A DNA stretch of 56,143 nucleotides from Alphaproteobacteria bacterium (GTDB lineage: Bacteria; Pseudomonadota; Alphaproteobacteria; UBA9219). Below the pieces are notes generated by a model, which made no database searches, had not been told where the DNA came from, and saw only the letters and a list, made by a program, of their open reading frames with translations. Position 1 is the stretch's first letter. Each line of letters starts with the position of its first letter. This document shows positions 19,678 through 25,957 of the stretch, piece after piece. Both the position numbers and the translations under genes were made by a program. The DNA lies in contig JBAVWC010000438.1 in NCBI GenBank assembly GCA_049697595.1, positions 1-56,143 on the forward strand, written 5' to 3'.

Positions 19678-20427
19678 ATGACCGCATACTATAACGAATG
19701 GGAGCCATACCCAGCGCAATGGCTCCGCAACCTAATTAAAGCCGGATTGATCGCGCATGGCGATGTCGATGAACGCAGTATAAAGGATGTTAAAGCCGAT
19801 GACCTCAAAGGATATGCCCAATGCCACTTCTTCGCCGGGATCGGTGGATGGTCTTATGCTCTACGCCTTGCAGGATGGTCAGACGACAGCCCTGTTTGGA
19901 CAGGAAGCTGCCCATGTCAGCCCTACAGCATTGCCGGCAAAGAACTCGGACAAGAGGATGAACGCCATCTCTGGCCTTCCTATTGTGACCTCATCAAAGA
20001 GTGCAAGCCTTCAATCATCTTTGGAGAACAGGTTGTTGGAGCGATTAGTCATGGATGGCTCGACGATGTATGCGGCGACCTTGAAGGAGAAGGTTACGCC
20101 ACGGCGGCGGCGGTATTGCCAGCTTGTTGTGTCGGCGCAGAACATGAAAGAAAAAGGCTATGGTTCGTTGCCGACTCCGAACGCGAGGGACGGGAAAGAT
20201 TTGAGCACGACTACCGCGTATCTAGCAGCGCGAGGGAGGCATACGCCGAGTCTGGCCACCCATTTTTTATCGCTAGGCGTGCTGTGGCAAAAGATTTCTC
20301 ACATCTACGGCAGCGCGATGGGGTATCCGTCAGCGTGGAACGATCTTGCATCAAAGGATACGGCAACGCAATTGTCCCGCAAGTCGCGGCTCAATTCATA
20401 GAGGCTTTTATGGAGGTAAGACCATGA
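19678..20427 (+). CDS. DNA (cytosine-5) methyltransferase, frame-0 reading
   Basis: 249-aa ORF carrying motif I HFFAGIGG, IV SCPCQPYS, VI GEQV, VIII GAEHERKRLWFVA and X GYGNAIVPQVAAQFI. See the findings for the +1-frame anomaly between motifs VIII and X. Confidence 0.85.
   Translation: MTAYYNEWEPYPAQWLRNLIKAGLIAHGDVDERSIKDVKADDLKGYAQCHFFAGIGGWSYALRLAGWSDDSPVWTGSCPCQPYSIAGKELGQEDERHLWPSYCDLIKECKPSIIFGEQVVGAISHGWLDDVCGDLEGEGYATAAAVLPACCVGAEHERKRLWFVADSEREGRERFEHDYRVSSSAREAYAESGHPFFIARRAVAKDFSHLRQRDGVSVSVERSCIKGYGNAIVPQVAAQFIEAFMEVRP
19787..20401 (+). other. nested +1-frame ORF carrying the PTPxARDxK and MGYPxxW methyltransferase elements
   Basis: 204-codon open frame lying entirely inside the C5-MTase gene. 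LPTPNARDGKD is at 20168-20200 and MGYP at 20318-20329. Third-position-only differences from the paralog fall in this frame. Confidence 0.45.
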
Positions 20428-20744
20428 GCAAAGATTCACTAACGACGAAATGCGACATCGACAAAATCCGCGAGGGGCTGCTTTCTTTTCAGGAAGGTTC
20501 GGCTGCACCGGAGTATGAACAAGGCTTGCTTGATGCTTTAGATCGGCTTGTTGGCGATTTGGAGAGGCGGTCAAATGACGCTCTTGAGGAAGCAGCTAAC
20601 CATTTCGAGAACATAATGCATGGCGTCAATATCCCTGCTGAAATTCGTTCGCTGAAAAGGAGCAAGCTATGTCTGGTCAAACAAATAACCACGAAACCAG
20701 AAGTGCAAGAAGAACCGCTAATAACTAGGAGGAACGATGAATGA
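20424..20744 (+). CDS. hypothetical protein (106 aa)
   Basis: ORF 20346..20744 trimmed to the ATG at 20424 (ATGA overlap with the MTase stop). Confidence 0.55.
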   Translation: MSKDSLTTKCDIDKIREGLLSFQEGSAAPEYEQGLLDALDRLVGDLERRSNDALEEAANHFENIMHGVNIPAEIRSLKRSKLCLVKQITTKPEVQEEPLITRRNDE

Positions 20745-21288
20745 AGAAATAAAATACCCTGAGTTTGATAAGATTGCTCGCCTTTCCCGTGAATGCACAA
20801 TTACGGAAAAGATCGACGGCACGAATGGATTAATCCGTATCGAAGAAGATGGTGTGACCATGCGCTTCGGTTCCAGAACTCGATGGATAACCCCGGAGGA
20901 TGACAATTACGGCTTTGCCCAATGGTGTTGCAACAACCGCGATGACCTTCTGAAGCTAGGCCCCGGCGACCACTACGGCGAATGGTGGGGCAGCGGTATC
21001 CAAAAACGCTATGTCAATCAGCCAAAGCAGTTCTCGCTGTTCAACACGAAGCGTTGGAATGCGGATAACAAGCCCGCATGCTGTGAAATCGTTCCTATTC
21101 TCTATCAAGGCGTATTCAGCGGCGAAGCTATTGCTGAGACAATGGCGCATCTTGCAAAGGGTTCTGTCGCGTCACCTGGCTGCATGAGGCCGGAAGGCAT
21201 TATCGTGTGGCACACGGCGGCGCAGACCTATTTCAAAAAGACGTTCGACAAGGACGATGAATGGAAGGGAAAAGCTCATGCCGCTTAA
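20737..21288 (+). CDS. RNA ligase-family nucleotidyltransferase
   Basis: 183-aa ORF with motif I TEKIDGTN (KxDGxN), EGIIVW (motif IV-like) and FKKTFDKD (motif V-like K-x-K). This matches a small phage RNA-ligase domain. Confidence 0.75.
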   Translation: MNEEIKYPEFDKIARLSRECTITEKIDGTNGLIRIEEDGVTMRFGSRTRWITPEDDNYGFAQWCCNNRDDLLKLGPGDHYGEWWGSGIQKRYVNQPKQFSLFNTKRWNADNKPACCEIVPILYQGVFSGEAIAETMAHLAKGSVASPGCMRPEGIIVWHTAAQTYFKKTFDKDDEWKGKAHAA

Positions 21289-21460
21289 TACTAAAACGAC
21301 GAAATTGAAAAGCTGTCCTCTCTGCGGATGCCAAGAGGTTTGTGTAGAAACAAGTTTAGATAATGAAGACTATGTTGTCTGCCAAAACGAACATTGTGGT
21401 TGTTCATCAAACTTGGCTGCATGGCAAGGTTTTAAGAAGAACAGAAAGGATTCAGTATGA
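21278..21460 (+). CDS. Lar-family (restriction alleviation-like) zinc-ribbon protein
   Basis: ORF 21257..21460 trimmed to the ATG at 21278. LKSCPLCG...YVVCQNEHCGCSS...AAWQ matches the Lar-family pattern. Confidence 0.6.
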   Translation: MPLNTKTTKLKSCPLCGCQEVCVETSLDNEDYVVCQNEHCGCSSNLAAWQGFKKNRKDSV

Positions 21461-23779: not shown

Positions 23780-23968
23780 TTATCGGTCATGCTCTAGCTC
23801 CCATATTTTTCCTGATAACTGCTCGATGCAATCAGCCGCACTTTCCAGCAAACGAGCTTCGCCACTTCCGCTATCCAGTTTAAGCAAATGCGCCGCAAGG
23901 TTATTTAGCCCCTTGACAATATCTGCGTCAATTTTGGCTATTTTCGTCGTTACTGGTTTGTCGGTCAT
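23780..23968 (-). CDS. hypothetical protein (62 aa)
   Basis: ORF 23780..24058 trimmed to the ATG at 23966-23968 (ATGA overlap with the upstream MTase stop). Confidence 0.5.
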   Translation of the reverse strand: MTDKPVTTKIAKIDADIVKGLNNLAAHLLKLDSGSGEARLLESAADCIEQLSGKIWELEHDR

Positions 23969-24585
23969 ACTGCCCTCGGTTTCATAAAAACATACCAGTG
24001 AGTGAATCCTTGCCGTCCAGTTAGATGTCCGAAAAGCGGTTTGATGTCTGTCAGGCATAAAACCTCTTTGACTTTAATTTGAGTTTCGTTCCATTTGAAA
24101 ACCAAAGTGCCGTCTGCATCGAGAACTCGGAAGCATTCAGATAAACCTTTCTTGATGTCCTCTCGCCAATCGGCAGATAGTTTGCCATATTTCTTCGCAA
24201 GCCAACTCTTGTCGCCAGCCGTCTTTAGATGCGGCGGGTCGAACACGACTAGTTTGAAATGCCCATCAGGAAAGGGTATGTCTGTGAAGTCCATTAGAAT
24301 GTCTGGATGAATTTTCAGGCTGCGTCCGTCGCATAGGATGTGTTCTTCATCGCGGATGTCTCCAAAAACAACATCAGGATTCTTTCGGTCATTCCAGAAC
24401 ATTCTGCTTCCGCTGCAAGGGTCGAGGACTCGCCGTTTCGGCATCTTAGATTCCACCCTTGGCGTAGCTTCGCTGTTCCGTGCAGGCGCACAGCTTGAGT
24501 TCTCGCCTTGTAAGCCTCCTCCGGTAGCCGCCGCCGGAGTGCGAGATACGGTGGAATTATTCGTCGTTACTGATTTCTCACTCAT
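23965..24585 (-). CDS. amino-methyltransferase (N6-adenine or N4-cytosine type, DPPH motif)
   Basis: 206-aa ORF with motif I-like VLDPCSGS followed by motif IV VVFDPPH. The start ATG overlaps the stop of the C5-MTase (ATGA). Confidence 0.72.
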   Translation of the reverse strand: MSEKSVTTNNSTVSRTPAAATGGGLQGENSSCAPARNSEATPRVESKMPKRRVLDPCSGSRMFWNDRKNPDVVFGDIRDEEHILCDGRSLKIHPDILMDFTDIPFPDGHFKLVVFDPPHLKTAGDKSWLAKKYGKLSADWREDIKKGLSECFRVLDADGTLVFKWNETQIKVKEVLCLTDIKPLFGHLTGRQGFTHWYVFMKPRAV

Positions 24586-25223
24586 ATTAAATCTCCTTCT
24601 GCTTTGAGGATCGCTTCCCCGATGATCTGCGCGATTTGAGGAACGATGCTGTTTCCGAGAGACTTAAGGCGGTGTACTCGCAGGGGTATCCCATTAGCCA
24701 CTCGACCCACGTCGGGTTCAACGCCCCACCAGCGTGCGATGCGAGTGTCTTCGAGTTCCTTGCTAATTCTGCCGGAGAGTGTCCGTTGTCCTTCCAGTCC
24801 CTCGCGCATGGCGTTGGGTACATGTGAACTTGGTTTCTCAGTCTGCATCCGCTCGTCTGGCCGTTCTCTGTATATTTTAGCCAGCTCTCTTTGCTGCCTA
24901 TCCTTGCTGCATCCTCGACCGTTGGGGTTTGCCACGATCCAGACCCTATCTCTTTTGTGGGGAGCACCTGCCGCGGAAGCGGGGATACAATGCCATTCCG
25001 CATCATACCCGATCTCAGCGAGTGACCCGAGAACTTCTTCCAATCCGCGAGAGCGAAGGGCTGAGACGTTTTCGATGATGACGTAGTGCGGCTGCGCTTC
25101 TTTGATGATGCGGAGGTACTCGAACCAGAGGCCGCTTCGCTCCCCGGCAAGCCCTGCGCCTTTTCCCGCGAGGCTGATGTCTTGGCAGGGGAAGCCTCCG
25201 GCAATAACGCTGCTTTCCATCAA
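24582..25223 (-). CDS. DNA (cytosine-5) methyltransferase, motifs IV-X (lacks motif I in this frame)
   Basis: 213-codon ORF with motif [35 protein letters not shown] and [19 protein letters not shown] stop lies 4 codons upstream of its first TTG/ATG. Confidence 0.8.
24587..25204 (-). other. nested +1-frame ORF carrying [16 protein letters not shown] and [13 protein letters not shown] elements
   Basis: 205-codon open frame inside the C5-MTase gene, in the same relative (+1) frame as in the plus-strand paralog. PTP block is at 24788-24820 and MGYP at 24683-24694. Confidence 0.45.
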
Positions 25224-25383
25224 GTGTTGTTACGTCATCGTGGCAGGGAATATCCGGCCAGTGTTTCTTTAGAACGGCTTGGCAGAACGGTTCACGTTCG
25301 CAGAAAGCGACCGTTGTCATTCCCGCCGCTTCGAGGCCGAGCGAGAAGCCGCCTATGCCGGAGAATAGGTCAAGGACGCGCAT
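25015..25383 (-). CDS. C5-MTase N-terminal fragment (motif I), out of frame with the rest
   Basis: The ATG at 25381-25383 is preceded by SD-like [60 protein letters not shown] is MTase-like. After about 25225 the frame reads Arg/Pro-rich filler until the stop at 25015. Confidence 0.6.
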
Positions 25384-25957
25384 TTCTACGTTCCTTTCGC
25401 TTCTGTGCGGCTTGATAGTTGTACTGCGCGATAGGCCGCTTGCCGAGATGCGCCTTTGCGGTATTGAGAGAAATACCAGCCTCATTGAGCAAATCTTCTG
25501 TGCGCCACTCTTTCGACGGCAAAGGCCACCTGTCAGCAATCTTGTCTGCGGCTTCTTTCGTGAAGGCTTTTTTCTTATCGGCGGATATGCGGCCTCCAAT
25601 CTTTGCCGCGCCGGATGCCCTTGCCTCTTTCCAATGCTGCGTAATCAACTTGGCCGAGCATGTCGGAGGGTACACACCGCTTTCCAAAGACAGGATGCTT
25701 ATCTTTTTGCGGCGAATGTCAGGCAATAAGTCGCCCCACTCAGGATATGTTCTAGCAAGGACACCAAGACTGACGACCGCTAGCGTAATTTGTTCATTGC
25801 GACGTGTCGGGCGCAGGATTGCCGCCAAACCAGATTCGCCTTCGTACATCGGGATGGTGCTCCAATAGTCACCAAAATGTGTTGCGAAGGCATCGGCCTG
25901 ATACTGCGCCGTTCTCCAAGTTTTGTCTGAAATATAGGCTTTATGTGTCATTTTCAT
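25370..25957 (-). CDS. resolvase-like / HTH protein (possibly a degenerate serine recombinase)
   Basis: 195-aa [17 protein letters not shown]...[14 protein letters not shown] and the C-terminal GGR...[19 protein letters not shown] follow the order of resolvase catalytic-domain and HTH blocks, but several catalytic positions look substituted. First gene of the MTase operon. Confidence 0.45.

Follow-up and report, generated by a model that had tools for sequence, protein, structure and literature searches.

A C5-cytosine methyltransferase gene with an apparent recognition module conserved in the +1 reading frame: a candidate pair of fully overlapping genes for one enzyme

Several described systems distribute one function over two polypeptides or two reading frames. 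M.AquI and engineered split C5-methyltransferases obtain one activity from two polypeptides that are divided in or near the recognition domain, and fragments of M.SssI are reportedly one such engineered case. M.AquI is split once, into consecutive and barely overlapping genes, with motifs IX and X both on the second chain. A complete gene nested in the +1 frame of another is known from Rz/Rz1 of phage lambda, where both products act in one function and Rz1, an unrelated lipoprotein, covers part of Rz. Programmed frameshift genes (prfB with a +1 shift; dnaX and tail-chaperone genes with a -1 shift) have a defined slippery site, usually a zero-frame stop codon or a stimulator, and a single shift. 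The nearest published case is the "ShiLan domain," a segment of a phage methylase gene that is stop-free, of low model confidence and loop-like and in which the real protein lies in an alternative frame; it is a mobile homing-endonuclease insertion of sporadic occurrence and plays no part in methylation. In this study, we analyze a C5-cytosine methyltransferase gene, gene A, in a stretch of 56,143 nucleotides from an Alphaproteobacteria bacterium (contig JBAVWC010000438.1 of assembly GCA_049697595.1), the whole of which is called the window. The catalytic motifs of gene A are read in frame 0, and a segment resembling the recognition domain and motif IX is conserved in the +1 frame of the same DNA. 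The reading that we prefer, at a probability of roughly 0.57, is that the locus consists of two fully overlapping genes that jointly encode one C5-cytosine methyltransferase.

Gene A occupies positions 19678 to 20427 of the forward strand, on which all features of this locus lie, and its frame-0 open reading frame (ORF) encodes a catalytic core of 249 amino acids. Motifs I (FFAGIGG, 19828-19848), IV (SCPCQPYS, 19906-19929), VI (FGEQV, 20020-20034), VIII (GAEHERKRLWFVA, 20134-20172) and X (GYGNAIVPQ, 20356-20382) are all found in this one polypeptide. The product matches Pfam family PF00145 over residues 74-169 only (E-value of 1.6e-19) and phrog_363, "DNA methyltransferase," over its full length (E-value of 6e-74); it has thousands of homologs of about 253 amino acids, and its profile matches motifs I, IV-VIII and X of M.HhaI. 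A target-recognition domain and motif IX, which belong between motifs VIII and X of the same polypeptide, are not found in frame 0, which reads there a poorly conserved linker of about 60 amino acids in place of the usual recognition domain. An AlphaFold2 model of the frame-0 protein (81-sequence alignment) had a predicted local distance difference test (pLDDT) score above 90 across most of residues 1-170 and of about 90 at residues 230-249, with block means of 42-58 at residues 171-230, essentially the stretch that is under selection in the +1 frame. A Foldseek search with this model returned the catalytic domain of M.HhaI only (168 columns, root mean square deviation of 2.0-2.2). As modeled, the frame-0 product is a catalytic domain only, without a structured small domain.

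Nested in gene A is a second ORF, ORF B, with 204 codons in the +1 frame (19787..20401). An earlier interpretation of this DNA, made from the letters alone and referred to here as the sequence-only reading, had described both the frame-0 motifs and this ORF, and they are present as it described them. The N-terminal part of ORF B mostly echoes the frame-0 motifs, with PNATSSPGSVDG corresponding to QCHFFAGIGGW, and its C-terminal part is the conserved recognition module, which includes the peptides LPTPNARDGKD (20168-20200) and SAMGYPSAWNDL (20312-20347). Between frame-0 motifs VI and VIII, ORF B reads TLKEKVTPRRRRYCQLV (20078..20128; family motif TWKxKxTPxGR), where both frames are moderately constrained and where a beta-hairpin is predicted, with AlphaFold2 strands at residues 96-103 and 109-116 of the +1 product. 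ORF B matches phrog_1008, likewise labeled "DNA methyltransferase" (E-value of 1e-14); its product had no match in Pfam, and a search of the PDB sequences with the +1 profile also gave no match. Its homologs (P0121-P0129) are 42-54% identical to it, or 39-52% identical in a MAFFT alignment.

That both frames are constrained as protein is seen from codon-position variability among homologs. DNA was gathered for about 330 homologous loci, and a codon alignment was made from 16 non-redundant homologs that share the subtype of gene A (about 253 amino acids, about 60% identity). Over codons 1-160, the third position of frame 0 was the most variable (0.31-0.62, and at least 0.41 in all alignment windows but two), with an amino acid identity of 0.43-0.83 in frame 0 (at least 0.52 in all but one) and of 0.30-0.60 in the +1 frame (at most 0.51 in all but one). 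Over codons 161-195, the most variable position was frame-0 position 1, which is position 3 of the +1 frame (0.43-0.59, with the other two at about 0.18), and the +1 frame was the more conserved at the amino acid level (0.76-0.82 versus 0.32-0.48 for frame 0). Position 1 was still the highest over codons 191-225 (0.33-0.42, with positions 2 and 3 at 0.22-0.30), where identity was 0.53-0.63 in frame 0 and 0.66-0.69 in the +1 frame; here both frames seem to be under genuine constraint, rather than one frame just following the other. Over codons 221-245, position 3 was again the most variable, with identities of 0.65-0.83 in frame 0 and 0.35-0.53 in the +1 frame. The +1 translation over codons 161-225 is near-invariant (GWPTPAARDGKDISRSNAFLSQRKRHSPSMATRLLEQGAPWTVITAIYCLAMGYPLQWND). 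Each frame is under protein-level purifying selection over its own segments, and the succession of 0, +1 and 0 that the sequence-only reading had proposed for this gene holds generally across the family.

By identity and codon-position variability, the stretch under +1 purifying selection is LPTPNARDGKDLSTTTAYLAARGRHTPSLATHFLSLGVLWQKISHIYGSAMGYPSAWND, at 20168..20344, where frame 0 is the variable, low-confidence linker. At the first junction (20134..20172), the last codons of motif VIII overlap the start of the +1 PTP block and selection passes from frame 0 to the +1 frame; at the second, which is followed by motif X (20345..20382 together), it returns to frame 0 within about four codons after TGG AAC. 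At 20249-20352 (codons 191-225 of gene A), all three codon positions show comparatively little nucleotide variability, and both frames are conserved.

We regard it as highly improbable that this pattern is an artefact or due to chance, that is, to compensating indel errors in the assembly or to a base composition that leaves the alternative frame open. Such an explanation could draw on the second methylase gene in the window, in which the frame is broken, for no evident reason, between motifs I and IV. However, a 94%-identical relative of gene A (P0001) has the same frame structure on seven contigs from separate ENA metagenome samples, and the same frames recur at hundreds of loci, cultured phages included, which rules out an assembly error for the gene at 19678..20427; the compensating indels that the sequence-only reading had allowed for are not borne out. 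Between gene A and the 94% relative, there are 49 substitutions in nucleotides 1-436, mostly at frame-0 third positions, and just 4 in nucleotides 437-750; 3 of these 4 lie within the +1-selected stretch, where all 3 are silent in the +1 frame and 2 of the 3 replace a frame-0 residue. A megablast search of the gene A locus against phage and E. coli collections found no near relatives.

Chance is opposed by the stop codon counts. Over 19787..20398, the +1 frame of ORF B has 0 stops compared to a mean of 6.45 in synonymous-codon shuffles, and not one of 5000 shuffles was open. In 78 homologs of gene A with a G+C content (GC) of 45-68%, there were 94 interior +1 stops versus 345 ± 14 expected, while the +2 control frame of the same homologs had 830 versus 829 ± 21 expected. 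GC is 48% for the window and 53% for gene A; it was rejected as the cause of the open +1 frame on the strength of the synonymous shuffles, the +2 control and genes with a GC of 40-50%. The conservation of the +1 amino acids, with wobble positions of their own, also argues against chance.

The +1 peptide of the selected stretch has the form PTPxARDGKD...MGYPxxWN and ends in a canonical motif IX (compare RECARVMGYPDSY of M.HhaI). A profile of 20 chimeras in which the +1 block was joined to the frame-0 motif X (64 positions) had its best PDB matches at residues 268-315 of M.HhaI (LHPRECARVMGYPDSY...KQFGNSVV), at a weak E-value of 0.37, and among the matches listed 13 of 16 were C5-methyltransferases, with the other three being PotB permease chains. 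In E. coli Dcm, which served as a control, LTPRECARLMGF (including RECARLMGF) is followed by YRQFGNSVVVP in a single frame, and the +1 frame of dcm has 14 stops. Because the chimera profile aligns with M.HhaI and because of the likeness to Dcm, we assign the +1 motif LNPxFxxWLMGYPxxW, here shortened to SAMGYPSAWND, as the counterpart of motif IX; the PTPxARD block upstream of it is, as judged from its place in the sequence, in the position of the target-recognition domain. The identification of the +1 segment as a recognition module, made first in the sequence-only reading, is thereby supported. A Pfam scan gave almost equal scores for the chimeric and the frame-0 proteins.

The recognition module appears to be exchanged between methylase scaffolds, as would be expected of a specificity determinant. 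The block PTPNARDGKDLSTTTAYLAARxRH(T/S)PSLAT (window 20168-20260) is identical at 29 of 31 positions in P0139, which has another methylase scaffold, and P0002, with 80% identity to the N-terminal two-thirds of gene A, carries a different and longer module. A near-identical recognition block on a different scaffold was seen both in P0139 (locus L169) and in P0297. P0139 and P0144 were also considered as natural in-frame fusions and rejected: motifs VIII-X are still present at their loci, in the -1 frame, so both resemble frameshifted copies.

It could be argued that the +1 ORF encodes an independent protein rather than a methylase subunit, for example, a DNA-binding, regulatory or anti-restriction factor, with the frame-0 protein acting by itself or together with a host factor. 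Such a protein would fit the conservation and apparently separate translation of both ORFs, the lack of Pfam or PDB sequence matches for the +1 family, the range of 1 to 5 WxTP repeats and the placement of the gene among others with anti-restriction roles (a Lar-like protein, other methylases). However, the end of the +1 block aligns with C5-methyltransferase motif IX and resembles Dcm, exactly at the position of the small domain, and the frame-0 product is predicted to have no ordered small domain of its own. Known C5-methyltransferases require this domain, as seen in the structures of M.HhaI. Furthermore, in every locus examined, the +1 ORF sits within the methylase gene. We therefore consider an independent function unlikely, if still a serious contender.

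How the +1 module would be translated is reflected in the openness of the two frames and in the 5' end of ORF B. Between frame-0 codon 45 and the first PTP (6711 codons), the +1 frame contained 2 stops versus 78 ± 5 expected, and inside the +1-selected stretch (5027 codons), frame 0 contained none versus 119 ± 9 expected in a shuffle that keeps the +1 protein; the third frame over this stretch had 197 stops versus 176 expected. Motif X is in the same frame-0 ORF in 64 of 72 genes. The two long ORFs on the same strand are both stop-free beyond expectation, as is looked for in a nested gene pair. The first +1 ATG of the homologs always arises from a conserved Asp codon (GAT, then G), 10-22 codons before motif I. 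The Arg-Ser codons ((A/C)GG AG(C/T)) of a conserved DERSI spell GGAG in 29 of 64 homologs compared to 14% expected (binomial P of 2e-9), AGG making up 30% of the Arg codons at this site versus 10% elsewhere. In all 29 homologs, a +1 ATG follows this GGAG by 8 nucleotides, and in 28 of the 29, the frame is then open for more than 150 codons. ORF28 of phage K1H has GGAG, 6 nucleotides and ATG, and gp57 of phage Bloom has GGGAGG, 12 nucleotides and ATG. To judge from these signals, the 5' end of the +1 ORF in homologs resembles a translation start. In the window, the candidate start region of ORF B is at 19782..19801, with AAAGGA at 19782-19787 and +1 ATGs at 19787 and 19799; in the 94% relative (L163), a stop follows directly after the first +1 ATG, and only the second ATG is common to both.

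The 0/+1/0 conservation matches the canonical domain order exactly, which is also what a double programmed frameshift would give. Ribosomes would then shift +1 after motif VIII and -1 after MGYPxxWN and make one canonical chain of motifs I-VIII, recognition domain with motif IX, and motif X, with the linear frame-0 and +1 products being by-products or minor forms. The alignment of the chimera with M.HhaI across motifs IX and X agrees with such a chain, as does the failure of the +1 product to model as a stable fold by itself. However, no conserved slippery heptamer or zero-frame stop was found at either junction in 17 aligned homologs, where only the nucleotides required for coding are conserved and where neither a rare-codon pause nor an extra conserved nucleotide signal is present. 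Two shifts would also give no reason why the +1 frame should stay open over more than 100 codons ahead of the first site, or why frame 0 should stay open between the sites, and would leave the GGAG-8-nucleotide-ATG arrangement at the 5' end of the +1 ORF unexplained. To our knowledge, there is no precedent for two efficient shifts within one gene. We judge the double frameshift to be improbable, and it is quite improbable that ribosomes, additionally or instead, make the single canonical chain by +1 and -1 shifts without a known slippery signal. If they did, recoding by a new mechanism would be at work in thousands of phage genes across four bacterial phyla, and a natural gene needing two opposite shifts would be seen for the first time. 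The sequence-only reading had placed a ribosomal +1/-1 shift and a nested +1 gene side by side; we favor the nested gene because both frames stay open beyond what a 0/+1/0 chain needs, because of the start signals at its 5' end and because there is no slippery site.

According to the nested-gene reading, frame 0 would give the catalytic (large) domain, composed of motifs I-VIII, a linker indifferent to sequence and the motif X helix. The +1 ORF would be translated from its own start near codon 37-41, and the C-terminal part of its product would form the small domain, with the beta-hairpin, the PTPxARDGKD recognition block and motif IX (MGYPxxW). The two chains would associate non-covalently, so that recognition and motif IX are supplied in trans; split C5-methyltransferases, both the natural M.AquI and engineered fragments, are known to reassemble. 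We infer that both products are made, bind each other and constitute the active enzyme as a complex, with the complementary domain content of the two ORFs, as predicted and modeled, pointing to their assembly. A number of observations do not sit easily with two separate chains. The ribosome-binding site of ORF B in the window is weak, the AAAGGA being at a spacing of 0 from the ATG at 19787 or of about 12 nucleotides from that at 19799. The AlphaFold2 model of the +1 product alone (20-sequence alignment) had a mean pLDDT of 55, with only residues 155-185 reaching 70-85, and a fold search with this model matched nothing. An N-terminal leader of 70-130 amino acids on the +1 protein is hard to explain if only the C-terminal module counts. 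Finally, the canonical order of motif VIII, recognition domain, motif IX and motif X would be expected of a single recoded chain as well, and motifs IX and X, which in the chimeric reading are separated by a fixed 12-13 residues in 52 homologs, fit a recoded chain too.

The layout is not confined to gene A. More than 80% of the 78 gene A homologs have WxTP or PTPxxxD (1-5 copies) together with [LM]MG[YFW]P in the +1 frame, and almost none have them in frame 0. A second methylase family, to which the window's other C5-methylase gene belongs and which is represented by 78 viral contigs (GC of 40-67%), has a median open +1 run of 230 out of 286 codons versus 55 for the +2 frame. Ahead of the point where the ORF opens, its +1 frame has 8.7 stops per 100 codons, and for about 212 codons thereafter it has 0. 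Together, the two families with this layout cover a GC range of 40-68% and include phages of E. coli, Paenibacillus, Mycobacterium and Porphyromonas, that is, of Proteobacteria, Firmicutes, Actinobacteria and Bacteroidetes. In E. coli phage K1H, GenBank labels the nested ORF28 a "putative Mte8-like protein," and our literature searches did not trace the source of this label. Both overlapping coding sequences of Paenibacillus phage Bloom are annotated as "DNA cytosine methyltransferase," and a genome paper on Paenibacillus phages lists two "DNA-cytosine methyltransferase" genes without comment. A hidden Markov model profile of the +1 product matched 12,918 representative proteins among 1.84 billion at an E-value of ≤1e-3; the nested ORF has consequently already been called thousands of times by gene callers.

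The supposition in the sequence-only reading that phage C5-methyltransferases normally carry the PTPxARD and MGYPxxW elements in frame is not supported, as every phage relative examined has them in the +1 frame. The view that actinophage methylases have PTP, MGxP and motif X in a single frame was also rejected, since Mycobacterium phage SG4 gp64, Bloom and a Porphyromonas phage all have the +1 layout. A search with a chimera of motif VIII, recognition domain, motif IX and motif X found no protein with this order in a single frame, only 11 candidates being retrieved; homologs with the PTP/MGYP block in the frame of motifs VIII and X, which the same reading had named as a counterexample, were likewise not found among these few.

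The second C5-methyltransferase gene of the window, referred to as the paralog, lies on the reverse strand (24582..25383) and has the same dual coding. Motifs IV-X are in an ORF at 24582..25223, the +1 ORF, which reads WQTPTVED..., is at 24587..25204, and motif I, with an ATG at 25383, is in a third frame (ORF 25015..25599). An equally open +1 frame occurred in a fraction of 0.0002 of shuffles. The break between motif I and motifs IV-X is located within 25206-25229, where the sequence around LDGKQ / VIAGGFPCQ suggests a 2-nucleotide deletion or a 1-nucleotide insertion, and the +1 ORF is without the usual ATG. Since motif I shares one frame with motifs IV-X in 74 of 78 relatives, a pseudogene or an assembly error is the probable explanation for this copy. 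The codon differences between the two genes on which the sequence-only reading was built (CCG/CCA, ACT/ACG, AAA/AAG, GGG/GGA and the rest) are all present, as is the dual coding; the paralog is itself atypical in that its motif I is out of frame. A relative in the second family (L170:3001-3669, GCA_022076585.1, JAKCWK010001577.1), seen on six contigs, has a motif I that shares its frame with the +1 recognition ORF instead of with motifs IV-X, and its frame break differs from that of the window's copy. At 24700-24750 of the reverse strand, the same 48 nucleotides encode two 16-amino-acid strings, one in the methylase frame and one in the +1 frame, both of which are familiar as "conserved motifs" of methylase entries. 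This suggests that public methylase annotations mix the two frames.

A third DNA methyltransferase with a VFDPPH motif (23965..24585, reverse strand; phrog_954, E-value of 1e-75) has an ATG that overlaps the stop of the second C5-methylase gene (ATGA), the two genes forming a methylase cluster. An RNA-ligase-like gene (phrog_548) is found at 20737..21288 and a small Lar-like restriction-alleviation gene (phrog_599) at 21257..21460, and small ORFs are also present in the neighborhood of the methylase genes. Gene A ends in a stop that shares ATGA (20424-20427) with the start of the following ORF (20424..20744, with no family match), which suggests that the two are translationally coupled. The gene content fits a location of the methylase genes in a phage early or DNA-metabolism region and fits anti-restriction genes.

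Should both products be made and assemble, a single enzyme would be interleaved between two frames of one DNA stretch, with its middle domain read in the +1 frame and with frame 0 passing through as a spacer on its way to the last catalytic helix. Few proteins would be encoded in so unusual a manner. It would also be a large, ancient and so far unnoticed case of dual coding in phages, and thousands of database entries would each be half an enzyme. "DNA cytosine methyltransferase" entries of about 250-430 amino acids would have out-of-frame filler as their "recognition domain," at least 12,918 representative "hypothetical proteins" would be the other half of the enzyme, and prediction of specificity or expression from the annotated ORF alone would fail or mislead. 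Since the recognition module is apparently swapped between scaffolds, it would be the part to read for predicting which restriction systems a phage evades.

Our full-text literature searches found no description of a C5-methyltransferase with its recognition domain and motif IX in an alternative frame, in line with the sequence-only reading, which was not aware of one. Gene A shares motifs I, IV, VI, VIII and X with M.HhaI and E. coli Dcm (PF00145), as well as the DNA order of motif VIII, recognition domain, motif IX and motif X. In contrast to those enzymes, the recognition domain and motif IX are here in the +1 frame while frame 0 reads a variable linker, and the chimeric reading places motif X about 7 residues closer to motif IX than it is in M.HhaI. 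As in prfB, dnaX and tail-chaperone genes, conservation at the protein level carries over from one frame of a gene to another, but here there is no slippery site or zero-frame stop, and both frames are open far past the junctions. Whereas the ShiLan domain is a sporadic insertion, the segment in gene A is integral, universal in the enzyme family and at the position of the recognition domain and motif IX. Compared to M.AquI, the small domain would be excised from mid-chain into a fully nested alternative frame, with motif X proposed to stay on the catalytic chain. Unlike in Rz/Rz1, the nested ORF spans about 80-95% of its host gene and would encode a domain of the same ancestral enzyme.

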